DNA of 64,000 nucleotides from Deltaproteobacteria bacterium (GCA_046583365.1 JAYGCL010000079.1:17508-81507); one strand, 5' to 3'; counted from the first letter of the stretch, positions 2,558 through 42,410 are shown. Notes: a model not told the origin generated them from the letters alone. Made by a program: numbers and translations.

Positions 2558-2559
2558 CG

Positions 2560-5085
<2,526 letters not shown>

Positions 5086-5255
5086 TTACCGGACCTTTTA
5101 TGTGGAGCCTGCAACAGCCCCCGGGGGAGCCATAAAGCTATCAAATTGGAACCTGTAAGTAAAGCAGCTAATGCCACTAAAACCCTTTAAATAAAAGGAT
5201 TTCTAGCACATCCGGGACATATTCCCGGCGACCCGAGGAAGCAGGTTCAGAGGCC

Positions 5256-21029: not shown

Positions 21030-21518
21030 TCAGCTCGCTCGGAGTACTTTTCGTCTCTCGCGTTTGGCGTTGATGCTGTGGCGGCGTCCGTTGACGCGGC
21101 GGAAGGGGAAACGGTAAACTTGGCCGGACAGACCCTGGTCCTGGGTGCGGATGCGCCACTGGCTGAGCCCCCGGCGCAGGTATTCGGGCTCCATGTTGAG
21201 GGCCTGGCAAATACTGGCAAACGAAAACGGCCAGCTCATGTCGTTCGAGTCGAGCCACGCTTCCACGTCGGGTCCGTCCCCGTTGCGGCTGTCTTCAGAC
21301 TGCAGAAAATTTTTCTGGAATGAGGCAATGGCGTCTTCGAGAACGGCCAGCATGAGCCGTTTCTCCGGCACTAGGGTCGACTCTCCCACCTGCCGGTCAA
21401 AGAACTGCGAAGGGGTCATCGTGTCCGGTTCCACCATGGTGATGGCCGGATCTTCGACGCACACGGTGCGAGATTTGCGTTCCGGGCCAGTGTCGGTTGC
21501 TGGTGCTGCTTCGCTCAT
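21030..21518 (-). CDS. Hypothetical protein with basic C-terminus
   Basis: 162-aa ORF with coding-like composition and no confident family match. Sits between an ACAD gene and a MerR gene. Confidence 0.35.
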   Translation of the reverse strand: MSEAAPATDTGPERKSRTVCVEDPAITMVEPDTMTPSQFFDRQVGESTLVPEKRLMLAVLEDAIASFQKNFLQSEDSRNGDGPDVEAWLDSNDMSWPFSFASICQALNMEPEYLRRGLSQWRIRTQDQGLSGQVYRFPFRRVNGRRHSINAKRERRKVLRAS

Positions 21519-21545: not shown

Positions 21546-22316
21546 TCAATCATGGGTTCCGGTTGCTTCGTGTTCGGACTCATCTCTGAGTTCCCCGATG
21601 GCCTGCAGAATAAGTTTGCGTCTGAGAAGAACTATGAGTTGTTCGACGAGTTTGATCCCGGCCTGGGCCATCTCGGCCACTTCGGCCGGGTCGAATTTGC
21701 CGGTGACGGCCCTGGTAAAGATCTTGAGTTCCTCTTTGGCCATCATCTTGATCGATCTGACGTACATCGGCATTGCACTGTGGGGGGGTACAACATCAGA
21801 ACCGAGGTTTGCTTCCTGCAGCAACCTGAAGGTCTCAAGTATCAGTACGTCGTCGCCTTCAAAGTACTCAACCCCGTTGCGTATGACGGGGGTCAGGACG
21901 TCGAGTTCAATGCAGTAATCGAGGTTCTCATCCGTGACCTGGTAGCGCGCGATGGCCTGCTGGCGGCTGACCGGTTTGTGGCCGGGAGAGTAGTGAATCT
22001 CTTCGTAAAGATTCCCCTCCAACCCCATCAGCGTATTAATTTCTCCTTGCGAGACGACGTTTTCGTCTCGGTCCAGGATTGTTTTTATGATGTCGAGAGG
22101 GAGAAAGCGCTTTCGCTGCAGTTCCTTGATTATGCGGATGCGGTCGACGAAGGAGCGGTCGTAGTAGGCCATGTTGCGGCCGGTTTTAAGCGTGGGCGCG
22201 GGCAGCAGGTCCTCGCGCATGTAGAATTTTATGGTGGCCGCCGATACGCCGGTCTCCCGGGCAAGGTCGGAAATCTTATAAAGCCCTTTGCGGGCGTTGT
22301 TGGTATCGGACGCCAT
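21546..22316 (-). CDS. MerR-family transcriptional regulator
   Basis: N-terminal MerR HTH (LYKISDLARETGVSAATIKFYMREDLLP) plus a C-terminal effector/dimerisation region. Confidence 0.75.
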   Translation of the reverse strand: MASDTNNARKGLYKISDLARETGVSAATIKFYMREDLLPAPTLKTGRNMAYYDRSFVDRIRIIKELQRKRFLPLDIIKTILDRDENVVSQGEINTLMGLEGNLYEEIHYSPGHKPVSRQQAIARYQVTDENLDYCIELDVLTPVIRNGVEYFEGDDVLILETFRLLQEANLGSDVVPPHSAMPMYVRSIKMMAKEELKIFTRAVTGKFDPAEVAEMAQAGIKLVEQLIVLLRRKLILQAIGELRDESEHEATGTHD

Positions 22317-22462: not shown

Positions 22463-24130
22463 GTGGTATTAGGGCCACGGGGGATGGGTGGTTTTTCCGC
22501 AAGCAGCCGCAGGGGGGGGTTGGAAAGGGCGGCCGAGGGGGTGGCCGACCTGCTTGTGGTCGGTGCCGGCATCACCGGGGCCGGGGTAGCCCGTGAAGCG
22601 GCCTTGAGGGGATTGGCCATTGTTCTTCTGGACAAGGGGGATATTGGCGGGGGCACCAGCAGCCGTTCGTCCAAGCTCATCCATGGGGGCCTGCGCTACC
22701 TGGCCCAGGGTGAGGTGGGTCTGGTGCGTGAGGCGGCCCGTGAGCGTTCCGTGCTCCGGCGTATTGCCCCGCATCTGGCCAAGCCCGTGCCGGTACTTAT
22801 CCCGGCCGGGTCGAAAGCCGGGCGCATGCGTCTGGGCGCCGGCTTGTGGACTTTTGTAAAACTTGCCCCGGCCGGCTCGGGTGAGAGTTACCGTAGCCTG
22901 GATGCTGCCGAGACCTGTCAGGCCGAACCCCTCCTTAAAAAAGGCCGCCTGGCAGGTTCGGTGGCAATGACAGAGTACATTACCAGTGATGCCCGTCTGA
23001 CCTTGGAAACGGCCCGCTCGGCCGCCGTTGCCGGTGCGGTGGTGGCCAATTATGCCGAGGTGGTCGGGGTCGAGGAGGACAGCAGCGGATTCAGGGTGAC
23101 GGTAGAGGACCGCAGCGGGGGAGGCCGCCTGGTGATACGTTGCCGGGTCCTGGTCAATGCCGCCGGCCCATGGTTCGACCGGGTAAGGGCCCTGCTCGAT
23201 GACGGCCGACAGGCGGCGGCTAAGGGTATGGTACAACTCACCCGGGGTATCCACCTGGTTGTACCCCACCAGCGCCTGCCCCTTGGCCACATGGTCATTC
23301 TTCGGGCCGGCGACGGTCGTTCTACTTTTGCGATCCCGCGGCCCCCCTACACCTATATAGGCACCACTGACACGGCCTACGACGGGGCCCCCGAAGAGCC
23401 CGGGGTATCAACCGAGGATACCGCCTACCTGCTCGATTCGGTTTCGCTGGCCTTTGAAGATGCCCCTTCGGTTGCCGACGTGGTTGGGACCTGGTCAGGC
23501 GTGAGGCCCCTGCTACGGCAGGACGGTCGGCCCCCCCACGAGATATCCCGGCGCGATGAGATCGTCTGCGGTCCCGGGCCGGTTGTTTCGGTGGCCGGGG
23601 GGAAGCTGACAACTTACCGATGCATGGCGGTGAGGGTGATGGAAAAAGTTTTTGAGCTGCTGCACCGCAGCCCGGATGTTGATATCGATTCGGCGACGAT
23701 ACCGTTGGTCGGTGGTTCCCTGGCCGAACAACAGGCGGCCCGCCTCAAGGCCCCTGCTCTGGCCGACGAGGTCCTGGCCGACCGCCTGTGGTCGACCTAC
23801 GGGACCGAGGCACTGGGCATTGTCGAGCGCATCGCAAGCGCGCCGGCCGCGGGCGGGCCGGTCGGGGGTCTCAGCGAACTGACCCTGGCCGAAGTCGAGC
23901 ACGCCGTAGAAAGCGAGATGGTGATCACCCTCGACGACCTGTTGCGGCGCCGCTCGTCTGTTGCCATGTTCGATGGTGGCAGGGCGGCTGCGGCGGCCGT
24001 TGCGGTGGCCGCCTGCGTGGGCCGCCTGTGTGGCTGGTCGGACGGGCGCGTCCAGGCCGAAGCGGATACGGTCAGCCAACGCGCCATCGGTGAACTGGCC
24101 ACTGTGAAGAATACCGGCGAGTGCGGGTGA
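22463..24130 (+). CDS. glpD: FAD-dependent glycerol-3-phosphate dehydrogenase
   Basis: FAD fold DLLVVGAGITGAGVAREAALRG...SSRSSKLIHGGLRYL and a C-terminal GlpD-type domain. Confidence 0.8.
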   Translation: MVLGPRGMGGFSASSRRGGLERAAEGVADLLVVGAGITGAGVAREAALRGLAIVLLDKGDIGGGTSSRSSKLIHGGLRYLAQGEVGLVREAARERSVLRRIAPHLAKPVPVLIPAGSKAGRMRLGAGLWTFVKLAPAGSGESYRSLDAAETCQAEPLLKKGRLAGSVAMTEYITSDARLTLETARSAAVAGAVVANYAEVVGVEEDSSGFRVTVEDRSGGGRLVIRCRVLVNAAGPWFDRVRALLDDGRQAAAKGMVQLTRGIHLVVPHQRLPLGHMVILRAGDGRSTFAIPRPPYTYIGTTDTAYDGAPEEPGVSTEDTAYLLDSVSLAFEDAPSVADVVGTWSGVRPLLRQDGRPPHEISRRDEIVCGPGPVVSVAGGKLTTYRCMAVRVMEKVFELLHRSPDVDIDSATIPLVGGSLAEQQAARLKAPALADEVLADRLWSTYGTEALGIVERIASAPAAGGPVGGLSELTLAEVEHAVESEMVITLDDLLRRRSSVAMFDGGRAAAAAVAVAACVGRLCGWSDGRVQAEADTVSQRAIGELATVKNTGECG

Positions 24131-24136
24131 GTATAT

Positions 24137-25546
24137 ATGGGCGATAGTCTTGAAAGCCTGGAAAAACTGGTAAGCCGCAACGACAGCCTCGAACTGGTGA
24201 CCGAAGAAGCCGTCCGCGCCGAGTTGAGCCACGACAGTTGGATGCGCTCTCTCCTGCAACGGCGTGCCGGCCGCAGCGCCGCGATTGCCCGCGCGGTGGT
24301 AAGGCCTTCTACCACGGCCGACGTCTCGGCACTGCTCGAGTGGGCCGAGGCTTCACAAACGGCGGTAGTGCCCTACGGGCTGGGCTCGGGGGTATGCGGA
24401 GGTATCCTGGCCGGGGCCGATACCGTAGTCATCGACATGCGCAATATGGCCGCCATGGTGGATATAAACGAAGAGACTCTCAACGTAAGGGTACAGCCGG
24501 GTATGTGCGGTGCCGACTTTGAACGCGAACTGAACAGCCGTGGTCTCAGTATGGGCCACTTCCCCCAGTCCATAGGGGTTTCCAGCGTGGGCGGTTGGTG
24601 TGCCACGCGGGCCTCGGGGCAATTCTCGACCCGTTACGGAAATATCGAAGACATGATGGTAGGTTGTGAAGTGGTGTTGGCCGGCGGCAAAGTAGTGCGC
24701 ATGCCTGCGGCGCCGCGTTCCTCGACCGGCCCCGACCTCAAGGAACTATTCATGGGCAGCGAGGGGACCCTCGGCATTTTCACCGAACTCACCTTCCGCG
24801 TACACGAGTTGGCCGAGGAGTCGGCGGGTTGTTGCTACACGCTTGATTCGGTTGCTGCCGGTATCGAAGCCATGCGCCTGGTGATGAGGGCCGGCTGGCG
24901 GCCTGCGGCCATGCGACTCTATGATGCTACCGAGGCCGGCCGTCACTTTTCCATGGAAGGGGCTGAGGGACAGCCCGCTTTGCTCATAATCAGCGAGGGA
25001 CCGGCGGCTTTGGTGGAGTCCGAGGTGCGTACGGTCGGCGAGATTGTGGAAAAGGCCGGCGGGCGCAGCCGCGGCAGTGGCCCGGTGGAGAGTTGGCTGG
25101 AGCACCGCAACGAGGTTCCTTCTTTTGACGAACTTATAGACCGGGGCCTGGTGGTAGACACGATCGAAGTTGCAGTCGGCTGGGACCGTCTTGCCGGCCT
25201 TTTCGAAACAGCCATTGCCCGCGGTGCCGCCATAGAAGGGGTGATGGTCATGTCAGGCCACCTCTCCCACTGCTACGGAGACGGTGCCAATATCTATTTT
25301 ACTTTTGTCGGTACCCGCTCGGAGGCCGATGATGCCACCGCGCTTTACGACCGGGTCTGGGAGGCCACCATGGAGGCGACCCTTGAAGCGGGCGGTACCA
25401 TAGCCCACCACCACGGTATAGGCAGGGTGCGCAAGGACTGGTTGCGCCGGGAACTTGGCCCGGCCCATGAAGTCCTGCGCGCACTCAAGCGCACCCTGGA
25501 CCCCTCGGGCATTATGAACCCCGGGGTCTTAATGGACATGGACTGA
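24137..25546 (+). CDS. FAD-linked oxidase, alkyl-DHAP-synthase-like (AGPS-like)
   Basis: FAD_binding_4 domain (VVPYGLGSGVCGG). C-terminal HLSHCYGDGANIYFTF resembles the AGPS-type H-x-Y..GA.LYF motif rather than the HxxDGNxH of GlcD/Dld enzymes. Confidence 0.65.
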   Translation: MGDSLESLEKLVSRNDSLELVTEEAVRAELSHDSWMRSLLQRRAGRSAAIARAVVRPSTTADVSALLEWAEASQTAVVPYGLGSGVCGGILAGADTVVIDMRNMAAMVDINEETLNVRVQPGMCGADFERELNSRGLSMGHFPQSIGVSSVGGWCATRASGQFSTRYGNIEDMMVGCEVVLAGGKVVRMPAAPRSSTGPDLKELFMGSEGTLGIFTELTFRVHELAEESAGCCYTLDSVAAGIEAMRLVMRAGWRPAAMRLYDATEAGRHFSMEGAEGQPALLIISEGPAALVESEVRTVGEIVEKAGGRSRGSGPVESWLEHRNEVPSFDELIDRGLVVDTIEVAVGWDRLAGLFETAIARGAAIEGVMVMSGHLSHCYGDGANIYFTFVGTRSEADDATALYDRVWEATMEATLEAGGTIAHHHGIGRVRKDWLRRELGPAHEVLRALKRTLDPSGIMNPGVLMDMD

Positions 25547-25553
25547 AGCGGCC

Positions 25554-27014
25554 GTGGGCACACACGTGATGGGAATAGATGCCGGCACCACGGGGGTGCG
25601 GGCGTTGGTCTTTGATGAGACCGGGGGGGTCGTGGGCCGGGCCTACCGGGAACTGAAGGTGGATTTCCCACAGCCCGGCTGGGTGGAGCAGGATGCCGGC
25701 CTGGTGTGGTCGGCAACGCTGGAGGTGGCCCTTGCGGCCGTGTCCGAGGCCGGCCTTGTTCCCTCCGACCTTGGGGCCATAGGCATTGCCAACCAGCGCT
25801 CTTCCGTCGTGGCCTGGGACGGAGTTTCCCTGAGCCCGCTCTCTCCTCTGATCGCCTGGCAGGACCTGCGCACGCAAAACCGTTGCACGCAGTTGATGGC
25901 CGAGGGTTTTTACATCATTCCGATGCAGGCCGCCTCCAAGGCCGAATGGATCCTGGCCAATTGCCCGGCCGCTGCCACGGCTGCCAAGGCGGGCCATCTC
26001 CGCCTTGGCACGCCCAATAGCTGGTTGGCCGCGTGTTTAAGCGGCGGCGTCCACGCCTGTGACCACGCCAACGCCAGCACCACCGGCTTGTACGCCCATG
26101 TTGAGAGGGGTTGGGACGAGACTGTAATGCAGGCCTTGGGCCTGCAGCGGTCCTGGATGCCCGAACTGGTCGAGTCGAATACGGTTTTTGCCACCACGGC
26201 CGCCGACGTTTTCGGGGCCGAGGTGCCGCTGGCCTCTATGTGCGGTGACCAGCAGGCTTCGCTTTTTGGCCTGGGTTGCACCGAGGTGGGCCAGACCAAG
26301 TGTTCCTACGGTACCGCCGCGATGGTTGATTCCAATACCGGGTTTTCAATGACCGCGGCCGGTCCGGGCACCTACCCATTGGTGGCCTGGAGCTTTGACG
26401 GCCGCCCCACCTATTGCACCGAGGGCACGGTGGTTACGGCCGGAGCCGCCGTTCAGTGGTTGCGAGACGGACTCGGCTTGATCCAGCATGCCGCCGAAAC
26501 CTCCGCGCTGGCCCAGAGCATCAACGATGCCGGAGGAGTGTGGGCGGTGCCGGCACTGCAAGGGGTCGGCACCCCGATAATGGACCCATCCGCCCGGGCT
26601 ATGCTGGCCGGCCTGACGCGGGCCTCGGGCAAGGCCGAGGTCGTAAGGGCGGTGTTGGAGGGAATCGCCAACCGTGTAAGCGATGCGGCCGAGAGTCTGT
26701 GGTCGGAGAACGCGGGTCCGGCCGTATTGCGTGTCGATGGGGGCGCCAGCGCCAATGACTTTCTCATGCAACGCCAGGCCGACCTGCTCGGCATTGCCGT
26801 TGAGCGCGGGCGTGAGACCAATGGTGCCGCTTTGGGCGTGGCCGCCATGGCCGCGGCCGCTACCGGATTGTGGCAGGGCGATTGTTCGGGGGGAGCCTGG
26901 CAGCTTGAGCGTTGTTTTGAACCCTCAATCGACGAACAGCAAAGACAAGACGAACGTGGACTATGGGCCAAACGCCTGCAGGGGGCCGTGGCCCTGAGCC
27001 GCGTCGCAGACTGA
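25554..27014 (+). CDS. glpK: FGGY-family carbohydrate kinase, glycerol-kinase-like
   Basis: MGIDAGTTGVRALVFD, QPGWVEQDA, GIANQR, GDQQASLFG and VDGGASANDFLMQ parallel the GlpK motifs. Confidence 0.7.
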   Translation: MGTHVMGIDAGTTGVRALVFDETGGVVGRAYRELKVDFPQPGWVEQDAGLVWSATLEVALAAVSEAGLVPSDLGAIGIANQRSSVVAWDGVSLSPLSPLIAWQDLRTQNRCTQLMAEGFYIIPMQAASKAEWILANCPAAATAAKAGHLRLGTPNSWLAACLSGGVHACDHANASTTGLYAHVERGWDETVMQALGLQRSWMPELVESNTVFATTAADVFGAEVPLASMCGDQQASLFGLGCTEVGQTKCSYGTAAMVDSNTGFSMTAAGPGTYPLVAWSFDGRPTYCTEGTVVTAGAAVQWLRDGLGLIQHAAETSALAQSINDAGGVWAVPALQGVGTPIMDPSARAMLAGLTRASGKAEVVRAVLEGIANRVSDAAESLWSENAGPAVLRVDGGASANDFLMQRQADLLGIAVERGRETNGAALGVAAMAAAATGLWQGDCSGGAWQLERCFEPSIDEQQRQDERGLWAKRLQGAVALSRVAD

Positions 27015-27026
27015 CGGGCGAAGGGC

Positions 27027-27656
27027 GTGGGGTTTGAACTGGTCGTTTTTGACTGCGACGGAGTGCTGTTTGATTCCGACGGTGCCAATTGGGCCTTCTA
27101 TGATGAGATCATGAAGCGGGCCGGCCAGCCCCCCTTGCCGGAGACCGCCAGACCAGACGCCAGTGCCCTGGCCTCGGCCCAGCTGTTTCAGCGTTACTAC
27201 GGTGACGATCCCGAGTCTCTGGCCACCATTCGTGCCACGGCGCGGGCGACCGATTACGGTCCGTTCTTCTCCCTCATGAAACCACGCAGCGACCTGCGCC
27301 AGGTGATTGAGGGTCTCAGGGGCCGCTACCAAACGGCCATGGCCAGCAACCGCAGCCGCACGCTTGGCGGCGTGATAGAACATTTCGGGCTTGAGGGCCT
27401 GTTCGACCTTGTCGTCGGTGTGGCCGACGTCAAACATCCAAAGCCCGCCCCCGACATGCTGCTCGAATGCAGCCGTCGGCTGGGGGTGGACCCCGGCCGG
27501 GCGGTCTACGTGGGCGACCAGGAAAGCGACCGCCTGTCGGCCGCTGCCGCCGGCATGGTCTTTGTCGGCATCGGCGCTGCTGTGGCCGCCGCCGAGTTCA
27601 GGATCAACACCCTTGAGGAGCTGGAACCCCTGCTTGCGAGTATCGATTGCGCCTAG
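27027..27656 (+). CDS. HAD-superfamily hydrolase (phosphoglycolate/sugar-phosphate phosphatase-like)
   Basis: Motif I VVFDCDGVLFDS and motif IV VYVGDQESDRLSAAAAGMVFV. Confidence 0.7.
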   Translation: MGFELVVFDCDGVLFDSDGANWAFYDEIMKRAGQPPLPETARPDASALASAQLFQRYYGDDPESLATIRATARATDYGPFFSLMKPRSDLRQVIEGLRGRYQTAMASNRSRTLGGVIEHFGLEGLFDLVVGVADVKHPKPAPDMLLECSRRLGVDPGRAVYVGDQESDRLSAAAAGMVFVGIGAAVAAAEFRINTLEELEPLLASIDCA

Positions 27657-28335: not shown

Positions 28336-29334
28336 TCAGCCGGCCGCCGGGGCCAGCTGGTTGAGACGGTCGATGAGGGTGCGAAGGCGGCCGTAGCTTT
28401 CCATGTCGAAGTGCGTCGTCAGGCGGGTGAGTCCGTCGAGGGCCGGCTCGTCGAACTCTTCCTTGAAAACCCCTCGCTGTCGTATCGGTTGTCCGCCGAG
28501 GATGTCCGAGAACTCTTCGGACAGGCTCGCCAACGCGGTCTCCCCCAACTTTTGCGTGGTACGCAGGACCAGGCGGCGGCGGATCACGCGGGAAGAGTGG
28601 TAGCAGCGGTAGAAGTCGGTGATGTGTTGCACGGCTGTGTCGACGTTGTCGGTAATGGAGTAAAGGTTGAGGTCGGTGGGACTGATAAGGCCCCGGCCGA
28701 GGAGGTGGCGACGCACGTAGTCGTCCCAGCCCTGCCAGTAGTCTCCGCCGGGGATGTCGAGAAGGATTATGGGCATCAGTTGGGCCTTGCCGGTTTGCAC
28801 CAGGGTCAGCGTTTCAAAGCCTTCATCGTGGGTGCCGAAACCGCCGGGCAGAAGTACCACGGCCGAGGACTCTTTTAAGAAGAACAGTTTGCGGGTGAAG
28901 AAGTATTTAAAGTCCACCAGCTTGCGGTCTCCGCGGATCACCGGGTTGGCCACGTTCTCAAAGGGCAGTTTTATATTGACCCCGAAGCTGCGCTTGCGCC
29001 CGGCTCCCTGTTGGCAGGCCTCCATGATGCCGGGCCCGGCTCCGGTGATAACCATGAAGCCGGCATCGGCGATGCGCCGGGAAAAGTCGCGGGCCAGGTC
29101 ATAGATCGGCGTGTCGGGGCGAGTACGGGCCGAACCGAAGGTCGTTACCTTGCGCACCGAGGCGTAGGGACGAAAGCAGGCCAGGCCCCGGCGGATCTCG
29201 TCCATGGCCGACTCGATGAGTTTGAGGTCGGCCACCGCGATGCCGTCGTCGGCTAGGTTGAGGCAGGTCTGTATGAGCTTGGCCAGTAAGGGGCCGGTTC
29301 TGGGGTCGTCGATTTTGTCGGAAGGCTTGCCCAT
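28336..29334 (-). CDS. LOG-family protein, long form (TIGR00730 Rossmann fold with N-terminal extension)
   Basis: VTTFGSARTRPDTPIYDLARDFSRRIADAGFMVITGAGPGIMEA...LLPGGFGTHDEGFETLTLVQTGK. Confidence 0.7.
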   Translation of the reverse strand: MGKPSDKIDDPRTGPLLAKLIQTCLNLADDGIAVADLKLIESAMDEIRRGLACFRPYASVRKVTTFGSARTRPDTPIYDLARDFSRRIADAGFMVITGAGPGIMEACQQGAGRKRSFGVNIKLPFENVANPVIRGDRKLVDFKYFFTRKLFFLKESSAVVLLPGGFGTHDEGFETLTLVQTGKAQLMPIILLDIPGGDYWQGWDDYVRRHLLGRGLISPTDLNLYSITDNVDTAVQHITDFYRCYHSSRVIRRRLVLRTTQKLGETALASLSEEFSDILGGQPIRQRGVFKEEFDEPALDGLTRLTTHFDMESYGRLRTLIDRLNQLAPAAG

Positions 29335-29387: not shown

Positions 29388-30392
29388 TCAGTGGCCGTCG
29401 CGGTGTTGATTGATTTCGAGCAGTCGAAATTTCGCGCTGGGGGCGATGCCGTCACGGTCGTAGACTATCGCCTCAACGCCTGCCGCCTGGGCCACGGCCA
29501 GCCCCTTGCGGCCCGTGATCACCAGGGCCGTGGACCAGGCCTCGGCCACCGCGGCCCGTGGGGCCATTGCGGTGGCAAGGCGGGGGGGAAGAACCGGGCT
29601 TAAATTGAAAGGGTCAATGATGGGCCCAACCTCGGCTGCCGGTCCCAAGGCCTTTGAGGTTGAAAGGGCCGCGTCGTGCAGTTCGACTGCACCCAGGAGT
29701 TGCCCCGGTTGGATGCCGCCGAGGGCCACCCGCCAGGCTTTGTCCCCTCTGGTCCGCCCGAGGGCCATGTGGCTGGAACCGCCGAAGTCGGCAAAGGCCC
29801 CGCGTGCGCCTTTGGATTTTAAAAAATCCACGATCTTGTCCAGGGCCAGGCCTTTGCCTATGCCACCGGCGTCCAGACGGACCCCGGGCAGGAGGGAGGC
29901 TGTGGGACGGGCTCCCTTTGCGCCTTCGAGGGTAAGGGCGGTTTGCAGACTCAAGGCTCCGCGCAAGGCCGCGCGTTCGAGCGTGTGCAGGTCGGCGGCG
30001 GTTGGAGTTTTGTGTTGCCGCCATAAATCCACGGCTGGCCCCAGGGCCGGGTCAAAGGTGGCCTTGGTGGCTTGGGCCAGGTCTTTCATTGTCGCCAGGG
30101 CCCAGGCCAGGTCCGGGCTTATGGCTACGGCTCCACTGCCGGCCTTGAGGTTGAGCCGTTCCAGCTCCCCTTCGGGCCGCCAGGTGGTAAGCACGTCGTC
30201 CCAGTGCCGGGCGATTGCAATACAAGCCTGGGCCAGACGGTCGGCTTCCTCGCCGGTGGCGGCCACCACTTCGACTTGCAAGACGGTGCCCATGACGGCC
30301 GCCGCCGCCTTTGCCGAGGCAGCGCCGGCGGCTGTGGCCGGGGCCGCCAGGACAAACAGAAGAAATACCAGCGCCGGCAGCGCTCGCGTCAA
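29388..30392 (-). CDS. apbE: FAD:protein FMN transferase
   Basis: Signal peptide, and an ApbE fold with LDAGGIGKGLALDK and a C-terminal Mg/FAD-binding region. Confidence 0.8.
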   Translation of the reverse strand: MTRALPALVFLLFVLAAPATAAGAASAKAAAAVMGTVLQVEVVAATGEEADRLAQACIAIARHWDDVLTTWRPEGELERLNLKAGSGAVAISPDLAWALATMKDLAQATKATFDPALGPAVDLWRQHKTPTAADLHTLERAALRGALSLQTALTLEGAKGARPTASLLPGVRLDAGGIGKGLALDKIVDFLKSKGARGAFADFGGSSHMALGRTRGDKAWRVALGGIQPGQLLGAVELHDAALSTSKALGPAAEVGPIIDPFNLSPVLPPRLATAMAPRAAVAEAWSTALVITGRKGLAVAQAAGVEAIVYDRDGIAPSAKFRLLEINQHRDGH

Positions 30393-30395
30393 CTC

Positions 30396-30917
30396 TCAGT
30401 CCCCGTTCTCGCCGTTACTGTTGGACGGGCCGTAAGCGCTTGGCAGTTCGAAGAGCAGGGCCCGGGCCACCAGTATTACCAGGATGGCAATCACGCCCTG
30501 CAGGAGCAGGAACATGGAGATTTTCATCCAGGCAAACCCCGGATGCACAAAGCGTACGCCCCAGCCGGCCAACTCGCCGCCCATGCCGGCGCCGAAGGCA
30601 AGGGCGATACCCCAGGCCTTGATACGCATGGAAATCGGTACAAACAGGGTCAGGTGGGTGAGCGTAAGCAGCAGGATGCCCATGGCAAAACTGTGGAAGT
30701 GGAGCATTTCCAGCAGCCCGACAAAGCTGCGGGGCTGCAGGTAGAGTTCTTCGTTGCCGAGGTAATAGTCGATTACCGAAGCCGGGTTGAGGCTCATCTT
30801 TGAAAAGTAAAGACCGATGTTGGTCAGCCACAACACCACCGTGTAGGCCAGGAAACACCACACGATCATTTTGAGTAGACGGTTTTTGGTCCACTCTCCG
30901 GTTACTACGAAACGCAT
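30396..30917 (-). CDS. 4-TM integral membrane protein with conserved His in TM helices, possibly DUF4405/cytochrome-b-like
   Basis: Four predicted TM helices. Histidines sit inside hydrophobic segments (EMLHFHSFAMG, LTLTHLTLF). Lies between the FMN-binding gene and apbE. Confidence 0.5.
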   Translation of the reverse strand: MRFVVTGEWTKNRLLKMIVWCFLAYTVVLWLTNIGLYFSKMSLNPASVIDYYLGNEELYLQPRSFVGLLEMLHFHSFAMGILLLTLTHLTLFVPISMRIKAWGIALAFGAGMGGELAGWGVRFVHPGFAWMKISMFLLLQGVIAILVILVARALLFELPSAYGPSNSNGENGD

Positions 30918-30929
30918 GACTATAACGGC

Positions 30930-31493
30930 CTAATCGTTGTCGGTTGGGGAGGCGGCGATGACTTCTTCATAAACCGCCAGCGCGCGGCCCACGGCGGAGA
31001 CCACGGCCCGCGAACTCAACGTCGAGCCGGTTACGGCGGCCAGGTCGCGGCCTATACGCAGGCCACTGCCCAGGCGCTTGCCCTTGAGTTGCTCCAACCA
31101 ACGCGCGCTCGGCAAGTATTCCAACGGCTCGTAGAAGGCAAGGACGTACACGGCACGTACCCGCCCGTCCGGGGAGAGGACGGTCAGGAAAGCCTCGGGG
31201 AGGGTGCGTACGATGTGGGTGTCGAGCAAGGCATAGCCGAGGGGTTCGTCTTGTTTGTAGCCGCTGTAGACTTTTATCAGGTCCGAATCGAGTCTGGTTC
31301 TGGCCGCGGCCTCGATTCGTTGGTGCTGGTCGGGACTAAGAAACAGCGTTGTCGTCTCGGTACGGGTGGCCTCGGGAAAGGCCAGGGCCGGCACCTCATC
31401 AAGTGAGTAGAAAACCGTTGCCGCGGCTTGGCCCGGGCAGGCCAGGCCGCAGGCAACAACCAGAGTGAGGCAAGGTTTCAGGAATGCTGGCAT
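30930..31493 (-). CDS. FMN-binding domain lipoprotein, likely an ApbE flavinylation substrate
   Basis: Lipobox LVVAC, and FMN_bind flavinylation motif GRDLAAVTGSTLSSRAV near the C-terminus. Confidence 0.65.
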   Translation of the reverse strand: MPAFLKPCLTLVVACGLACPGQAAATVFYSLDEVPALAFPEATRTETTTLFLSPDQHQRIEAAARTRLDSDLIKVYSGYKQDEPLGYALLDTHIVRTLPEAFLTVLSPDGRVRAVYVLAFYEPLEYLPSARWLEQLKGKRLGSGLRIGRDLAAVTGSTLSSRAVVSAVGRALAVYEEVIAASPTDND

Positions 31494-34022: not shown

Positions 34023-34631
34023 ATGGCGCCCCCACGGCCGAGCTTTGCCCTTTCCCTGGCCCTGGCTGTAGCCGTTCATGTGGGGGCCTTTGCCTTTCTC
34101 ACCCCCGGCCCGAGCGACCTGCCGGCCTACCGGCCCAGCCCTCCGGTCGTTTTGAGAGGGGAACTTTCCCCCCGCGATTCGGCACCACCCCACCCCGACC
34201 CTGACCCTGCCAGCCTCGGGCAAAGCCAACCGCAGCGGGGCCGCGCCCGTACTACGGCGGCACAGGTGGCGGTGGCCCCGATGGCGGCGGTCCGCGAGCA
34301 CGGCTCCGGCGATGAGGCCCTCATCGGCTACCAGTCTCTGCTGGCAGCCTGGTTGGAACGTTACAAACGCTACCCCGCAGCTGCCCTGCGCCGCCGTATA
34401 GAGGGCCGGGGTCTGTTGCAGGTGAGCATAGACGGCCGCGGTAACCTTCGCAGCAGCCGCCTGCTCGAGGGGCTGTCCTCGCCTATTCTTGACCAGGCCG
34501 TCCTCGACCTGGCCCGCCGTGCTTCCCCCTTTCCACCCCCGCCGGCCGGGGATGGTCATTACGAGTTTACGGTGCCGGTTGAGTTTCGACTGGGCCGCTC
34601 TTTGCCGTCCCCGCCGCTTTCGTCGCGGTAG
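34023..34631 (+). CDS. tonB: TonB-family energy transducer
   Basis: N-terminal TM helix, Pro-rich spacer, and a TonB_C domain (YPAAALRRRIEGRGLLQVSIDGRGNL...LDQAVLDLA). Start moved to MAPPRPSF. Confidence 0.6.
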   Translation: MAPPRPSFALSLALAVAVHVGAFAFLTPGPSDLPAYRPSPPVVLRGELSPRDSAPPHPDPDPASLGQSQPQRGRARTTAAQVAVAPMAAVREHGSGDEALIGYQSLLAAWLERYKRYPAAALRRRIEGRGLLQVSIDGRGNLRSSRLLEGLSSPILDQAVLDLARRASPFPPPPAGDGHYEFTVPVEFRLGRSLPSPPLSSR

Positions 34632-35860
34632 GCTGAGGCCAGCAACTCTATGGGGTGGGTCACCTCGATGGCAAGGCCCTGGAGGGCAAAGGCCCTTTCC
34701 AATTGCAGCAGACAGCCGAGGTTGGCCACGGCCACGCTGCCGGCATCCTTGCCTTCGGCAAGACGGGCCTTGTCGGCTCCCAGACGTTCGGCCATGGCCG
34801 GGTGGTCGAGGTTATAACTGCCCGCGCTGCCACAACAGATCTGGTTGTCGCCCAGATCTTCCACCGCGCTCCCGGTTGCGGCCTCGACCAGGGCCCGTGG
34901 TGCCTGGCTTATCCCCTGGGCGTGTACGAGGTGACAGGCGTCGTGGTAGAGAACCGGCCCGTTGGTGTTGGCCAGGGGCCGGGGACGTTCGAAACCTTCT
35001 TCGAACAACAGTTCGCAAATGTCACGGGTCCTGGCCGACAGCGCCGCTGCTGCCGCCGAGAGTCCATCGTCAGGGTCATCGGCAAACAAGCGGTCGTAGT
35101 CCTTGAGCATGGCCCCACAGCCGGCGCTGGTACTGACAACGAAGTCGGCACCGCCCAGAACCTCGATGTTTTTGCGGGCCAGGGCTCGGGCTTCTTTTTT
35201 ACGGCCACCGTGAAGGGCCAGGGCCCCACAGCAGCCCTGGGCGGGAACTTCCAGGACATCAAAGCCGTTGCGGCGCAGTACCTCGACGGCCGCCTGGTTC
35301 GTCTGGGGGCGCAGCAGGGGGGCCACACAGCCCTCAAGCAAAACCACACGGGGGCGCTTGGCAGCCGTAGCCACAGGCCGGGCCGGCAGGGTTGGGGCCA
35401 GGTCGTTGCCGTTACGGGGCATCAGCGACAGCCCGGGCAGACGGCGGCGCAGGTGGCCCAGCCCCATGCGGTCCAGAGCGCGGGCCGTGGCCAGGGCCGC
35501 GGCCATGAGGGGGCGGTTGGTTGTTAGCACCAACACCAGGGTCTTCCATAGAGCCTTAAGAGGTCGGTGCCGGGGAGCGCTTATGAGGGGGCGGAAAGTT
35601 TCAATCCGCCGGCCGAAGTCCACTCCCGAAGGGCAGGCACTCTCGCAGGCCAGGCAACCGAGGCAGCCGTCGAGGTGGGCGGCCGCTTCATCATCGAGGG
35701 ACAACTGGCCGGCGGTGATCGCTTCCATCAGGTAGATGCGTCCCCGTGGCGAGTCGGCCTCGGTGCCCAGCTGTCTGTATGTGGGACAGTGGTCGAGGCA
35801 GAGTCCGCAGTGGACACAGGGCAGGCCGATGTCGGCCGGGTTGTCGATGGCCGGGTTCAC
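34559..35860 (-). CDS. glcF: Glycolate oxidase iron-sulfur subunit
   Basis: Two 4Fe-4S ferredoxin motifs (CVHCGLCLDHCP, CLGCLACESACP) and two CCG cysteine-rich domains. Confidence 0.8.
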   Translation of the reverse strand: MNPAIDNPADIGLPCVHCGLCLDHCPTYRQLGTEADSPRGRIYLMEAITAGQLSLDDEAAAHLDGCLGCLACESACPSGVDFGRRIETFRPLISAPRHRPLKALWKTLVLVLTTNRPLMAAALATARALDRMGLGHLRRRLPGLSLMPRNGNDLAPTLPARPVATAAKRPRVVLLEGCVAPLLRPQTNQAAVEVLRRNGFDVLEVPAQGCCGALALHGGRKKEARALARKNIEVLGGADFVVSTSAGCGAMLKDYDRLFADDPDDGLSAAAAALSARTRDICELLFEEGFERPRPLANTNGPVLYHDACHLVHAQGISQAPRALVEAATGSAVEDLGDNQICCGSAGSYNLDHPAMAERLGADKARLAEGKDAGSVAVANLGCLLQLERAFALQGLAIEVTHPIELLASAYRDESGGDGKERPSRNSTGTVNS

Positions 35861-37104
35861 AGTCCCCCTACAAACCTTCCCGGCGAGAGCACCCGGTCGG
35901 GGTCGAAACGCTCCTTGATGCGTTTCATAAGTTCAAAACCCTGGGGCCGTTGGTCCCACACCTGCAGCCCCTCCTTGACCTCGGCCGTGGCTCTTAGGAC
36001 CACCGCGCCGGTGGCAAAGCCGGTGGCAAGCCGGCGCAGGCCGTCGACAAGGTCGGCCGCGGCCTGGGTGTCGGTTGTCGAGATGCACAGCAAACCGCTG
36101 CCCAGATGTCCGCTTACCCTGAGGCCGCCCGGACTGTGGTGGCTTAAATGGTCAAGGACTTTGGCAGCAAAGGCCAGGGCCTGGGCCGGTTTCAAGGCGA
36201 CCTCTACGGCCAGGGTTTCCTCATCCATGGGGTGGACGGGAGAATGCCAGGGCTCGGTGGAAACAGAGACCTGGCGGCGACACAGGGAAGTGATGCCTTC
36301 GATCTGGTAATCGACCTCACTGCGGGTGCCTTCGACGCAGGCCAGCAGGGTCCAGGGCGTTTGCTGGGGGGTAACGGTAAAGTCCAGTGCGGCCAGGGGC
36401 AGTGATGAGGCGAAAACAGCCCGCCTGGCCTCTCCCAGTTCTTTGTCGCTGGGGAATTCACACACCACCGTGGCCCGGGTATGGGCCAGGGGGTGGGTGC
36501 GCAGGGTGACCTCGGTTATGACGGCGAGGGTACCCAGGGAACCGCAAAAAAGCCGCGGCAGGTCGTAGCCGGAAACGTTTTTTACAACCTTGCCCCCGCA
36601 GGCAAAATAGCGGCCGCTCCCGTCGACCACCCTCAACCCCAACACCATGTCGCGGCAGGCTCCAAAGCCGTAGGCCAGACCGCCACTGGCGCCCGTTGCC
36701 ACCAGGCCACCCAGGGTCGCACGTTCGGGGTGGGCCGGGTCCAGGGCCACCCTCTGACCGGTCTGTTCCAGGCTGCGGTTGAGACGGGCCAGGTTGACAC
36801 CGGCGCCTGCCGTCACCGTCAGGTCCTCGCTGCGTTGTTCGATGATATCGGCCATGCCGGTGGTTTGCAGACGCAGGTCGAAGGCTTCTGGTATCGCACC
36901 CGCACCGAGCTGGCTGCCCCCGCCGGTGGTAACAATGGCCAGGCGGTTTTCCCGGGCCGCCTGCACCACGGTAAGGACGTCTTCAAAAGTGCGGGCCGTG
37001 ATCACGTGGCCGGGGGTAATGCCGTCTATAGAGTCCTCGCTGCGTCCGCTGCGGGCCTGGCCGGGACCAAACGAAGCGGTTACGGCCGCTATGTCGTGGT
37101 CCAT
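35857..37104 (-). CDS. glcE: Glycolate oxidase FAD-binding subunit
   Basis: FAD_binding_4 domain. Translationally coupled between glcD and glcF. Confidence 0.75.
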   Translation of the reverse strand: MDHDIAAVTASFGPGQARSGRSEDSIDGITPGHVITARTFEDVLTVVQAARENRLAIVTTGGGSQLGAGAIPEAFDLRLQTTGMADIIEQRSEDLTVTAGAGVNLARLNRSLEQTGQRVALDPAHPERATLGGLVATGASGGLAYGFGACRDMVLGLRVVDGSGRYFACGGKVVKNVSGYDLPRLFCGSLGTLAVITEVTLRTHPLAHTRATVVCEFPSDKELGEARRAVFASSLPLAALDFTVTPQQTPWTLLACVEGTRSEVDYQIEGITSLCRRQVSVSTEPWHSPVHPMDEETLAVEVALKPAQALAFAAKVLDHLSHHSPGGLRVSGHLGSGLLCISTTDTQAAADLVDGLRRLATGFATGAVVLRATAEVKEGLQVWDQRPQGFELMKRIKERFDPDRVLSPGRFVGGL

Positions 37105-37107
37105 GCT

Positions 37108-38559
37108 CTAACCCCCTCCCCGCGGTCGTGGGCGCGTGACTTCCACACAAACACGGTTGTCGGGGAACACCTTGCCGGGGTTACAACGGCCGTCGGGGTT
37201 GAAGGCCTCTTTGACATCGGCCATAGCCTCGATGGCCTCATTGCTGAATGCCGCCGGCATGAGGTCGATCTTTTCAATGCCGATGCCGTGCTCGCCGGTT
37301 ACCGAGCCACCAAGTTCGAGACAGGCCTCGAGGATTTCCCTTCCGGCCGCCAGTACTCTTTTTATCTCTTCATCGTTCTTGTCGTCGTACAAAACCAGGG
37401 GGTGAATATTGCCATCCCCGGCGTGGGCCAGGGTTGCAATCTTCAAAGAGTATTTATCGGCCACCTGGGCAATTTTTTCGACGATGTCAGCCATGCGTGA
37501 ACGGGGTACCACCCCGTCCTGAGTACAATAGCTCGGGGCTAGGCGTCCCATCGCGCCGAAGGCCCGCTTGCGCGACTTCCACAGCAGTTGTCTTTCTTTC
37601 TCGTCGGCCATTCGTCTTACCTGGCTGGCACCGGCCCGGTGGCAGGCTTCTATTATACGGTCGCCGGCCTCGTCGAGACCGGCTTTGAGACCGTCGAGTT
37701 CGATGATCAGGACCGCGCCGGCCTCGCGGGGGAAACCAAAATGGTAGGCCTCCTCGACCGCCTCTATGACCATGGCGTCCATCATTTCCAGGGCCGCAGG
37801 AATGATACCGGCCGCGATGATGGCAGAAACAGCCCGGCTGGCTTCGACGACGGAGGGGAAAACGGCCAGCAGGGTGGACACCCCTTCGGGTTTTACCAGC
37901 AACCTCAAGGTGGCGGCCGTTATGATGCCGAAGGTACCCTCCGAACCCGTGGCCAGACCGGCCAGGTCGTAGCCCGTCCCGGTGGCCCCGCCGGCAGAAG
38001 CGGCGGCGGCGGGGCGGGTGAGGTTGACAACTTCGCCGTTGGCCAGAACCATTTCTATGGCCAGCAGATGGTTTACCGTCACCCCGTATTTCAAGGTATG
38101 GGGCCCCCCCGAGTTTTCTGCAATGTTGCCGCCTATCGTGCAGGCCGACTGGCTGGAAGGGTCGGGGGCATAATAGAGTCCGTGGGCAGAGACCTGGCGG
38201 CTCACTTCGAGGTTTACCACTCCGGCTTCAACTTCCACCGTGCGGTTTTCGACGTCGATCGAGCGGACCCGCTTCATGCGGCTGGTGCCTATCATCACCG
38301 GAATTTCCAGGGGCAGGCAGCCCCCCGAAACTCCGGTGCCGGCCCCGCGGGGGACAAAGGGCAAGTCGGCCTGGGCCAGTATGGCGAGTACGCGGCTCAC
38401 CTGTTGGGTAGAGTCCGGCAACAGCACCAGTTCGGGGCGGGCCCGCTCGAGCGTGTAGCCGTCGCACTCGTAGACCTTAAGAGCGGCCTGGCCGGTGACA
38501 AATCCCTCGCTGCCGACCACGTGTTTGAGGCGGCGTTTTATTCTTCCACTGAGAGGCAA
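37108..38559 (-). CDS. glcD: Glycolate oxidase subunit GlcD (FAD-linked oxidase)
   Basis: FAD_binding_4 domain, and the C-terminal HAGDGNIHPL motif typical of GlcD/D-lactate dehydrogenases. Confidence 0.85.
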   Translation of the reverse strand: MPLSGRIKRRLKHVVGSEGFVTGQAALKVYECDGYTLERARPELVLLPDSTQQVSRVLAILAQADLPFVPRGAGTGVSGGCLPLEIPVMIGTSRMKRVRSIDVENRTVEVEAGVVNLEVSRQVSAHGLYYAPDPSSQSACTIGGNIAENSGGPHTLKYGVTVNHLLAIEMVLANGEVVNLTRPAAAASAGGATGTGYDLAGLATGSEGTFGIITAATLRLLVKPEGVSTLLAVFPSVVEASRAVSAIIAAGIIPAALEMMDAMVIEAVEEAYHFGFPREAGAVLIIELDGLKAGLDEAGDRIIEACHRAGASQVRRMADEKERQLLWKSRKRAFGAMGRLAPSYCTQDGVVPRSRMADIVEKIAQVADKYSLKIATLAHAGDGNIHPLVLYDDKNDEEIKRVLAAGREILEACLELGGSVTGEHGIGIEKIDLMPAAFSNEAIEAMADVKEAFNPDGRCNPGKVFPDNRVCVEVTRPRPRGGG

Positions 38560-41178: not shown

Positions 41179-41865
41179 CTCCCCCGCCTTGCCTATCCTT
41201 GCCATCGGGCAGGCCCGCCCCATGCTTTCCCTTATCCCTTCCTTGGCCAGGCTTGCCTCGGTCATCTCGGAGGCAAACCAGGCCGGTGCGATGGCGTTTA
41301 CGGTTATGCCGTCGCCGGCCCACTCAACGGCCAACTGCCGGGTCAGGTTTTCCACCCCGCCCTTGGCGGCGGCGTAGGCGGCGATTCTGAACAGAGAGCT
41401 TCCAAGGTGGCCGAAGATCGAGGCGATGTTGATAATACGCCCTTCTTTGCCACCCCGCATGGACTCGGCGCCAAGCAGGCAGCAGTGGAACAGAGCGCTC
41501 AGGTTAAGGTCCAGCGATGTCTGCCAGTCTTTGGGCCATTGGCGCTCGGCCGCCCCCGTGGGTGCCGTGCCGGCGTTGTTTACCAATGCATAGACAGGAC
41601 CAAGCCCGACCTCCACTTCCCTGAAGGCCCGTCGCCTGTCCTCTTCGTTGTTCAAGTCAACGGCTACAGGAAGGACCTCGGCCCCATACTCGGACCTCAG
41701 CTTGGCGGCCACTTCCTCAAGACGCTCACGGCGCCTGGCCATAAGGGCCACACGGGCGCCGGCAGCGGCCAGGGCTTCGGCAAACTCTACGCCGAGGCCT
41801 GCCGAGGCCCCGGTCACAACGGCGGTTCTGCCGTCGAAGCCGAAAAGTTCATTGAGGCCATTCAT
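41086..41865 (-). CDS. SDR-family oxidoreductase
   Basis: TAVVTGASAGLG cofactor motif, the NNAG motif, and the catalytic Y-x3-K (AAYAAAKGG). Confidence 0.75.
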   Translation of the reverse strand: MNGLNELFGFDGRTAVVTGASAGLGVEFAEALAAAGARVALMARRRERLEEVAAKLRSEYGAEVLPVAVDLNNEEDRRRAFREVEVGLGPVYALVNNAGTAPTGAAERQWPKDWQTSLDLNLSALFHCCLLGAESMRGGKEGRIINIASIFGHLGSSLFRIAAYAAAKGGVENLTRQLAVEWAGDGITVNAIAPAWFASEMTEASLAKEGIRESMGRACPMARIGKAGELKTACLFLASPSSSYVTGTVVAVDGGYSAW

Positions 41866-42410
41866 GATAGCAGTCCGGTCTCCCTCAGTGTTTCGATCGC
41901 CTGGTTGGGGTTGTCGCATACGGTAACCAGGCGGCGGTGGCCCGGGGTTATTTCCATGAAATTACTCAGTTGCTCTATGGCATCCTTCCAGGCCTGCCCG
42001 ACTACGATCAAGGGGCGTGCCGCTATCAATCCCATGTAGAGTTCGTTCCAGGCCAGCGCCACCTCCACCAGTGTGCCTATGCCGCCGCCGAGGGCCAAGA
42101 GGGCGTCGGAGCTGTGGATGAGATGTTTCAGCCTCTGGTAGAGATCGGTGCAGCAAACCTCTTCGCTCAAATAGGGGTTGGCCTCTCTGCCCGGAAAATT
42201 TTCCACGGTGTAGCCTATTACGCGGCCGCCGCTGTGGCTGGCCCCCCGGCTCACCGCTTCCATGACGCCGGCATAGCCACCGCAGGCCACGGTGGCGCCG
42301 GCATCGCCCAACAGGCGGCCGGTCAGCAGGGCCTGCCGGTAGAGGTCGCTGTCGGGCTTGCAGGCCGAACTGCCGTATACGGAAACCGTGGGTGCTGTTG
42401 GTGCTGCCAT
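41862..42410 (-). CDS. LOG-family protein (cytokinin riboside 5-prime-monophosphate phosphoribohydrolase-like)
   Basis: GGYAGVMEAVSRGA and the PGGIGTLVE-like segment ALGGGIGTLVEV. Confidence 0.7.
   Translation of the reverse strand: MAAPTAPTVSVYGSSACKPDSDLYRQALLTGRLLGDAGATVACGGYAGVMEAVSRGASHSGGRVIGYTVENFPGREANPYLSEEVCCTDLYQRLKHLIHSSDALLALGGGIGTLVEVALAWNELYMGLIAARPLIVVGQAWKDAIEQLSNFMEITPGHRRLVTVCDNPNQAIETLRETGLLS

Follow-up and report, generated by a model that had tools for sequence, protein, structure and literature searches.

A recurrent GlpD-like, AGPS-like and GlpK-like gene trio in an uncultured deltaproteobacterial lineage and its possible catabolic role in glycerol-phosphate metabolism

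The closest described system to the genes considered here is the PA3026-PA3025-PA3024 operon of Pseudomonas aeruginosa, which encodes a flavin adenine dinucleotide (FAD)-linked oxidase annotated as similar to alkyl-dihydroxyacetone phosphate (alkyl-DHAP) synthase (AGPS), a homologue of the glycerol-3-phosphate (G3P) dehydrogenase GlpD, and an FGGY kinase (Kotecka et al. 2021, PMC8151288). Downstream of the operon lies PA3023, a YegS-like lipid kinase; the operon has GliR/PA3027, of the AraC type, as its activator and is co-regulated with the phospholipase C PlcA, and a database proposal derived from KEGG would have it lead from glycerol, via G3P and glycerone-P, to acyl- and then alkylglycerone-P; its deletion left growth on glycerol, Biolog results, motility and biofilm unchanged, in an organism that has canonical glpK and glpD besides (PMC8151288). 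Beyond that work we found in the literature no functional characterisation of this module, and none of the related Escherichia coli protein YgcU, while the proteomic and array mentions of PA3026 and PA3025 are uninformative on function. Here we describe a locus of this kind in a stretch of 64,000 nucleotides from a Deltaproteobacteria bacterium (GCA_046583365.1 JAYGCL010000079.1:17508-81507; the window, in what follows), in which positions 22463-27656 encode a GlpD-like enzyme, an AGPS-like flavoprotein, a GlpK-derived kinase and a HAD phosphatase. The locus very probably represents a conserved trio of genes and not an AGPS orthologue with its partners, and, with a rough probability of 45% judged from sequence, it would serve a catabolic or salvage route, phosphorylative and FAD-dependent, for a glycerol-like compound, instead of a biosynthetic pathway to ether lipids.

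The two operons are alike in that an AGPS-like FAD oxidase, a GlpD homologue and an FGGY kinase are brought together; they differ in their order (FAD-GlpD-FGGY in P. aeruginosa, GlpD-FAD-FGGY in the window) and in their company, which in P. aeruginosa is the AraC-type regulator and the lipid kinase on the 3' side, and in the window a MerR-type regulator and the HAD phosphatase. The idea put forward in the initial annotation of the window, that an alkyl-DHAP synthase in a DHAP-generating operon suggests ether lipid synthesis, is already in print for PA3026-PA3024; what is new here is a variation with HAD and MerR genes, found in an uncultured lineage, on an operon type that is recognised although its function is unsolved. 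The operon comprises the following features:

22463-24130, + strand: GlpD-like FAD-dependent glycerol-3-phosphate-type dehydrogenase/oxidase (Pfam DAO and DAO_C)
24137-25546, + strand: AGPS-like flavoprotein of the VAO/PCMH fold, short at 469 amino acids (aa) (Pfam FAD_binding_4 and FAD-oxidase_C)
25259-25306, + strand: motif HLSHCYGDGANIYFTF of the AGPS-like flavoprotein (residues 375-390), in which Tyr387 aligns with the catalytic Tyr578 of Cavia AGPS
25554-27014, + strand: GlpK-derived FGGY kinase with a seemingly altered substrate pocket (Pfam FGGY_N and FGGY_C)
27027-27656, + strand: HAD-IA phosphatase (Pfam HAD_2, 2.6e-24)

These four genes form one operon: they are co-directional, as was first noted, although the gaps between them are of 6, 7 and 12 nt and not of the 7-13 bp then given, and their GC content at third codon positions is typical for coding sequence, in a window of 62% GC. 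The true start of the GlpD-like gene is probably the ATG at 22484, because the alignments with PDB entries start only from residue 11, and this ATG has a G-rich stretch in front of it. Among the NCBIfam models, the nearest to the GlpD-like protein is that of G3P dehydrogenase (NF008899), at 319 bits close to but below the cut-off of 360; the nearest to the kinase are those of GlpK (TIGR01311, 404 bits against a cut-off of 590; NF000756, 403 against 498); and the flavoprotein has no equivalog, its best match being glcD (TIGR00387, 177 bits against 568). Since all four enzymes fall under the equivalog cut-offs, they are diverged relatives, and not the textbook GlpD and GlpK.

Independent contigs contain these four genes again, in unchanged order and at 48-64% identity, and therefore the arrangement is not due to chance; in independent long contigs they recur together with the MerR gene, a gene for a 162-aa protein, an acyl-CoA dehydrogenase gene and a LOG-like gene, at 48-79% identity. 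In a metagenome scan with the family alignment, 80 loci were found whose AGPS-like gene is 39-64% identical to that of the window; in these, neighbouring families were called by panel tblastn and clustering of masked open reading frames (ORFs), and were counted where at least 1.5 kb of flank lay upstream (51 loci) or downstream (52 loci). The GlpD-like gene stands directly upstream of the AGPS-like gene in 39 of the 51, and an FGGY kinase lies no more than 4 kb downstream in 38 of the 52, directly adjoining in 27, while in six loci a CCG protein adjoins instead. As only the closest clade (L013, L015, L016, L017, L023) has the HAD gene and no further gene is universally linked, the stable unit is the GlpD-like / AGPS-like / GlpK-like trio.

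Around this unit the neighbourhoods vary. Representatives at 44-47% identity include the orders GlpD, AGPS-like, FGGY; GMC oxidoreductase, AGPS-like, GlpD, GDPD; and AGPS-like, CCG, glpABC. The trio also has cultured carriers: in Novosphingobium sp. EMRT-2 a LysR gene and the trio are followed by a sugar-phosphate isomerase, MFS transporters and LacI, and a further 6.6-Mb genome has the trio with a copy 86% identical to that one; in Paracoccus jeotgali an ABC transporter and the trio are followed by an aldehyde dehydrogenase (ALDH), two enoyl-CoA hydratases, an iron-type alcohol dehydrogenase (Fe-ADH) and a thioesterase; and Microbacterium sp. also carries the trio, one adjacent kinase being named GlpK by NCBI. 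A copy of the flavoprotein 97% identical to that of the window comes from a metagenome-assembled genome (MAG) labelled 'Deltaproteobacteria bacterium', relatives at 53-64% are labelled Binatia, Dadabacteria and similar, and the third homologue search returned alphaproteobacterial and MAG relatives only. One metagenomic locus (L071) has two AGPS-like genes on either side of a GlpD-like gene (2106-3407 and 5968-7350, respectively 32% and 41% identical to the window flavoprotein). In four marine or metagenomic loci (L059, L061, L063, L067) an SdsA-type alkyl sulfatase (MBL, Alkyl_sulf_dimr and Alkyl_sulf_C domains) and BioY come after the trio, as at L059:9095-11595; an alkyl sulfatase releases fatty alcohols, and its position suggests a connection with alkyl chains, in a single lineage.

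The initial annotation held the flavoprotein to resemble alkyl-DHAP synthase more than the GlcD/lactate dehydrogenase type, and in this respect it was right. By sequence, its best relatives in the PDB (phmmer) are AGPS structures, those of Dictyostelium (2uuu, 3.7e-57) and Cavia (4bby, 3.7e-51), whereas the nearest glycolate oxidase or D-lactate dehydrogenase entry is at 5.9e-39. By fold, an AlphaFold2 model built from a 56-sequence alignment (pLDDT 91.3) would likewise place it next to Cavia AGPS, the best Foldseek match with a TM-score normalised to the query (TMq) of 0.89-0.90 and a root-mean-square deviation of about 2.7 Å; the top 32 matches are all AGPS (TMq 0.87-0.90 for Cavia, about 0.80 for Dictyostelium, the scores normalised to the target being only 0.74-0.79), and the D-lactate dehydrogenases rank behind them at about 0.83. 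With the alignment register fixed by the Y578F and R419H mutant entries of Cavia AGPS, Tyr387 is equivalent to Tyr578, His424-426 (HHHGIG) to the His615-617 loop, and Arg260 (MRLYD) to Arg419, so that all the counterparts of the AGPS active-site His, Tyr and Arg are kept.

With GlcD and LDHD the flavoprotein shares the VAO/PCMH fold, but their metal-site motifs (HxGDGNxH and GEHG) are replaced by HLSHCYGDGANIYF and HHHGIG, and the metal-binding His/His/Glu set of the D-2-hydroxyacid dehydrogenases gives way to HxSHxY..G..YF and HHHG. The window itself provides an internal control for this contrast, in the form of a complete glycolate-oxidase-type operon:

37108-38559, - strand: glcD
35857-37104, - strand: glcE
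34559-35860, - strand: glcF (the whole operon, 34559-38559)

Its GlcD carries HAGDGNIH and GEHGIG, and as it thus keeps the canonical metal motifs, the difference first noted between the GlcD and AGPS motifs is real.

Resemblance, however, is not membership. Bacterial sequences of the true AGPS type, found by searching with the Dictyostelium FAD domain, are 45-52% identical to that domain, some of them coming from MAGs labelled Binatia and Deltaproteobacteria, and true AGPS proteins are 41-50% identical among themselves; the window flavoprotein is 29-35% identical to the bacterial type and 28-30% to the eukaryotic enzymes. In a neighbour-joining tree of 233 FAD-domain columns with 100 bootstraps, Dictyostelium, Cavia and six bacterial AGPS-type proteins form one clade in 99 of the 100, and the window flavoprotein lies outside it. 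The phylogeny for which the initial annotation had called, naming beforehand a clustering with the D-lactate/D-2-hydroxyacid dehydrogenases as the outcome against its view, thus did not group the oxidase with those enzymes, but neither did it admit it among the true AGPS. The protein also lacks the N-terminal extension of AGPS, which measures about 60 residues in the bacterial type (P0289) and 100-160 in the eukaryotic enzymes, its alignment beginning at about residue 105-119 of Dictyostelium and 163-182 of Cavia, which makes it shorter at this end by 60 to about 160 residues; and it lacks an insert of 25-45 residues, for which a gap stands opposite Cavia 425-470. This is a difference not only of the protein but of its surroundings: one bacterial true-AGPS gene (L093) is directly 3' of a PlsC-type acyltransferase (PF01553) and near a CDP-alcohol transferase, and another (L094) stands beside acyltransferase, short-chain dehydrogenase/reductase (SDR) and NAD_binding_4/Sterile ORFs, the latter of the fatty acyl reductase (FAR) type, while in the 64-kb window tblastn finds no such acyltransferase or FAR partner at E <= 0.9, and Pfam scans no homologue of either. 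Membership of AGPS (EC 2.5.1.26; 4bby, 2uuu; Myxococcus xanthus MXAN_1676) is therefore rejected, on the clade, on the missing extension and insert, and on the missing partners; the 99% clade and the low identity to its members (28-33%, against 41-50% among them) rule the protein out as an AGPS orthologue. It is a bacterial paralogue of AGPS, whose active site keeps a chemical resemblance to that of the enzyme.

This bears directly on the explanation in print, and also on the claim made for the window, in which a genuine alkyl-DHAP synthase would take part in bacterial ether-lipid synthesis from glycerol through G3P, DHAP and acyl-DHAP to alkyl-DHAP. Such an explanation can call upon AGPS as the best solved relative by sequence and fold, with the catalytic Tyr, HHH and Arg conserved, upon the capacity of GlpD-type enzymes to make DHAP, upon a Pcs-like gene 16 kb away, and upon the P. 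aeruginosa module, co-regulated with a phospholipase C and adjoining a YegS-type lipid kinase (PMC8151288). Nevertheless, we consider it highly improbable. To the exclusion from the AGPS clade and the missing regions of the protein is added that closer homologues of AGPS are found in MAGs labelled Binatia and 'Deltaproteobacteria', the same labels as those of the relatives of the window flavoprotein, and that those on enough contig adjoin the acyltransferase and FAR-type genes that the window lacks; moreover, no reductase is present for the step from alkyl-DHAP to alkyl-G3P, the kinase departs from canonical glycerol kinases, the deletion in P. aeruginosa was without phenotype (PMC8151288), and the AGPS motifs also occur in relatives with Fe-S or electron-transfer flavoprotein (ETF) partners.

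This last point extends well beyond the trio. An exhaustive profile search gave 1,399 cluster representatives of the family at E < 1e-30, of which the best 150 score at least 282 bits, against 197 bits for true AGPS; the HHHG loop is found in most of these 150 and the strict pattern of the Tyr motif in about 100. The carriers of the AGPS motif include proteins followed by a CCG protein and glpABC, and fusions of 800-1000 aa that contain FAD_binding_4 twice and precede a GlcF-like Fe-S/CCG protein. Such long fusions make up many of the family members, P0135 and other representatives of 700-1100 aa having FAD_binding_4, FAD-oxidase_C and a second FAD_binding_4, with the AGPS-type Tyr and HHHG kept. 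In a sister clade about 46% identical (for example, L009:7001-13838) the flavoprotein is followed by a CCG-domain Fe-S protein, and glpA and glpB lie next to this pair in three loci (L048, L069, L091; upstream of it in L091), with glpC also in two of the three, which implies for that clade a redox role next to the anaerobic G3P dehydrogenase. The presence of the Tyr/HHH/Arg set throughout the wider bacterial family means that it is not diagnostic of AGPS: the signature belongs to a large bacterial family that consists, at least in part, of ordinary redox flavoproteins. The proposal that the motif alone denotes the non-redox chemistry of AGPS was likewise rejected, since the Fe-S-partnered members, and YgcU with its neighbouring ETF genes, carry it too.

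YgcU of E. coli is 32% identical to the window flavoprotein, belongs to the same length class and has the motifs HSSHSYQNGTNMYF and HHHGIG, read from the alignment. Its cluster (ygcNOPQRSUW-yqcE-ygcE) also includes an FGGY kinase, although the identity between this YgcE and the window kinase is only 21%, and it differs in having an ETF (YgcQR) and an ETF-QO-like pair (YgcNO) and no GlpD-like gene. At 2892657-2903374 of E. coli K-12 (L010) the cluster contains in addition two transporters, an SDR and YgcP, annotated as a putative anti-terminator regulator, which we take to be GlpP-like.

If the flavoprotein is not AGPS, neither does its partner appear to be an ordinary GlpK. With E. coli GlpK the window kinase shares about 35% identity. 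Five positions determine specificity in the FGGY family, which in GlpK are Arg83, Glu84, Tyr135, Asp245 and Phe270, and these are essentially invariant in glycerol kinases (Zhang et al., PMC3245297). In place of the R-E-Y-D-F of GlpK, the window kinase has R-S-M-D-M. The AGPS-associated kinases behave as a group, for R83, W103, D245, Q246 and T267 are kept in all 37, while in all 37 E84 has been replaced by S, A, G, T, C or D, and F270 by M, V, T, S or C, and Y135 has been replaced in 36 of the 37, mostly by L, I, M or V. Read from these sequences, the pocket would be consistently shifted towards a less polar one on the side away from the phosphorylated hydroxyl, and as three of the five residues are changed, glycerol is probably not the substrate.

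The GlpD-like protein, on the other hand, has 3da1, the GlpD of Bacillus halodurans, as its best PDB match (2.6e-85), and in 39 sequences (38 encoded directly upstream of AGPS-like genes, together with that of the window) all the invariant residues of GlpD/GlpA, as defined from E. coli GlpD, 3da1 and three GlpA sequences, are kept at >= 90% except one (E. coli D109), including Y55, H233, R317, R332 and K354. The first-noted step in which the GlpK-like kinase makes G3P is doubtful, because three of its five specificity residues are replaced. The HAD-IA protein has motifs I-IV complete (FDCDG, MASNRS, KHPKP, GDQESD), and its best PDB match is an uncharacterised HAD (4rn3, 6.8e-31).

What is shared with the canonical glpK-glpD system is, then, a kinase followed by FAD-dependent oxidation of the 2-hydroxyl beside a phosphate ester, with the GlpD invariants kept; what differs is the R-S-M-D-M signature, a third enzyme that is always inserted, the absence of glpF and the scores below the NCBIfam cut-offs. 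This comparison also serves to weigh the simplest of the alternatives, that of ordinary glycerol catabolism to DHAP, in which the flavoprotein would be an accessory dehydrogenase for a side product or stereoisomer, such as D-lactate from the methylglyoxal bypass, or sn-glycerol-1-phosphate (G1P). The intact active-site invariants of the GlpD-like enzyme would agree with it, as would the sister clades, in which the pairing of the flavoprotein with a CCG Fe-S protein by glpABC, or with ETF genes, suggests a dehydrogenase, the name GlpK given by NCBI to one adjacent kinase, and the reported absence of any other glpK or glpD from some genomes with the module (PMC8151288). We think it rather unlikely all the same, because the associated kinases have changed three of the five specificity residues that real GlpKs keep (PMC3245297), the metal-binding set of the D-2-hydroxyacid dehydrogenases has been replaced, the window already has a separate glcDEF, no glycerol facilitator adjoins the operon, and P. 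aeruginosa keeps its operon beside glpK and glpD and shows no glycerol phenotype (PMC8151288).

Another alternative concerns larger polyols. Brucella uses for erythritol the kinase EryA and the GlpD-like dehydrogenase EryB, and in a C4/C5 polyol pathway of this type the flavoprotein would further oxidise or rearrange the ketose phosphate. In sphingomonads the trio has as neighbours a sugar-phosphate isomerase/epimerase, MFS transporters and regulators of the LysR or LacI type, and more distant AGPS-like genes are found with xylulokinase and a sugar ABC transporter, with PdxA and a four-carbon acid-sugar kinase, or with a phosphotransferase system (PTS), a polyol dehydrogenase and kinases, as is the case of the relative in Enterococcus termitis. 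But extra hydroxyls would require a pocket more polar than that of GlpK, and that of the kinase is less polar; furthermore, neither in the window nor in most metagenomic loci is there a transporter or isomerase with the trio, so this pathway appears distinctly unlikely to us.

The reading that we prefer is that of a catabolic or salvage route for a glycerol-like compound, to which the fallback already contained in the initial annotation, an undescribed DHAP-derivative pathway, comes closer than ether-lipid synthesis does. In a first step, the kinase would phosphorylate the primary hydroxyl of a glycerol analogue with a less polar or substituted far end, given that the catalytic Asp245 and Arg83 are kept and that the residues bonding the other glycerol hydroxyls have become small or aliphatic. 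The GlpD-like enzyme, to judge by the conservation of its invariants, would then oxidise the 2-hydroxyl beside the CH2-O-phosphate to give a ketone phosphate of the DHAP type. The AGPS-like flavoprotein may bind this phosphorylated ketol through its His-His-His/Arg site, and Tyr387 and the flavin may act on the carbon across the keto group, such that the carbon would end at the level of DHAP. For this third step the family resemblance to AGPS suggests C1-O exchange or cleavage, and the Fe-S and ETF relatives suggest dehydrogenation, which is at least as likely, because the sister clades carry such partners. Finally, and this would be the weakest of the steps, the HAD enzyme might dephosphorylate an intermediate or a side product. 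The neighbourhoods of the cultured carriers have a catabolic flavour, with MFS or ABC transporters, LysR or LacI regulators, Fe-ADH, ALDH and enoyl-CoA hydratases nearby. As specific substrates, 2,3-dihydroxypropane-1-sulfonate (DHPS), 1,2-propanediol, glycosylglycerol and G1P were considered, and the data single out none of them.

Several points weigh against this proposal. The coexistence of a kinase and a phosphatase in a single operon is not explained by it; the trio has no universally linked transporter, aldolase or isomerase in the metagenomic loci, which leaves the entry and exit of the pathway undefined; the trio clade as a group has a weak bootstrap, of 20%, in the neighbour-joining tree; the correspondence of the window trio with PA3026-PA3024 is one of families and gene content as described in the paper, and not of sequence alignment; and the reported absence of other glpK and glpD from some genomes with the module (PMC8151288) would agree with the use of glycerol itself, the changed kinase pocket notwithstanding.

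A more particular version would have the trio break, or salvage, the ether bond of 1-O-alkylglycerols without oxygen, that is, with the chemistry of AGPS in reverse. The altered relative of GlpK would then have the orphan activity of an alkylglycerol kinase (EC 2.7.1.93), alkyl-DHAP would arise from 1-alkyl-G3P through oxidation by the GlpD-like enzyme, and the AGPS-like flavoprotein, with water or a carboxylate, would release DHAP and a fatty alcohol from alkyl-DHAP; in more general terms, the flavin-N5 mechanism of the AGPS type would be used catabolically in removing the C1 substituent from a substituted DHAP. The hydrophobic pocket of the kinase and the retained AGPS residues are consistent with this, without amounting to a demonstration, and hints in the same direction could be seen in the lipase/LCAT-like gene, GDPD and alkyl sulfatase found as neighbours, in the alcohol dehydrogenase, ALDH and enoyl-CoA hydratase genes of Paracoccus, and in the co-regulation with PlcA and the adjoining lipid kinase of Pseudomonas. 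Still, as an explanation it seems to us improbable.

Returning from this version to the locus as such, two genes on the opposite strand accompany the operon:

21546-22316, - strand: divergent MerR-family regulator of 256 aa (Pfam MerR_1, 2.6e-21)
21030-21518, - strand: conserved 162-aa protein of unknown function, in synteny with the MerR gene and the operon

The MerR-type gene is probably the regulator of the operon; it is kept at the same position, at 55-63% identity, in six of the contigs (L001, L003, L013-L015, L023), and no NCBIfam equivalog applies to it. The 162-aa protein has no match in Pfam, NCBIfam or the PDB, and yet it is 66-79% identical across L001, L003 and L005, which exceeds the conservation of the neighbouring enzymes; within the closest clade its gene is always found beside the MerR gene and the operon, weaker copies (38-41%) lying 3' of the operon in L016 and L017, and by this synteny it may belong to the system. 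A scan for promoters and terminators gave nothing above background near the operon, and the window contains no tRNA and no Rfam family. On its 3' side the operon is followed by a SnoaL-like ORF, a LOG-like gene and ApbE. Genes of the LOG/SLOG family are found at 28336-29334 and 41862-42410 (- strand), that adjoining the operon being syntenic in L001, L003 and L005, and at 29388-31493 (- strand) an ApbE flavin transferase has as neighbours an FMN_bind protein and two small ORFs that match no family.

Further away, the window contains one of the two CDP-alcohol transferases, Pcs and another, that had been ascribed to it, the second not being found there:

43430-44131, + strand: Pcs-like CDP-alcohol phosphatidyltransferase (NCBIfam phosphatidylcholine synthase models, 5e-54, below cut-off)

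This gene has the motif DASDGALARW...G...D...D at 43586-43675, while Pfam is silent at E <= 0.001, and an alpha/beta hydrolase and an SDR lie on either side of it. At the beginning of the window gyrA, gyrB, dnaN and dnaA follow one another at 95-7967 (- strand), with a GC of 0.54-0.56 against about 0.62 elsewhere, so that the window starts at the gene set of a chromosomal replication origin; and the PagL, TonB/ExbBD and Ccm genes indicate a Gram-negative organism.

The consequences of these comparisons reach beyond a single locus. The proteins of this family are routinely auto-annotated as 'alkyldihydroxyacetonephosphate synthase', as in the JGI names, and, applied to a large family of paralogues, this annotation invites false calls of bacterial ether lipids in MAG surveys. 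Clade membership, the N-terminal extension and the acyltransferase and FAR neighbours offer practical criteria by which true AGPS can be told from its paralogues, and the ygc cluster of E. coli offers a tractable model for the wider AGPS-like family. As for the trio, a clade of AGPS paralogues tied to G3P dehydrogenases and to a GlpK-derived kinase of altered signature points to an undescribed reaction at the glycerol-phosphate/DHAP node.

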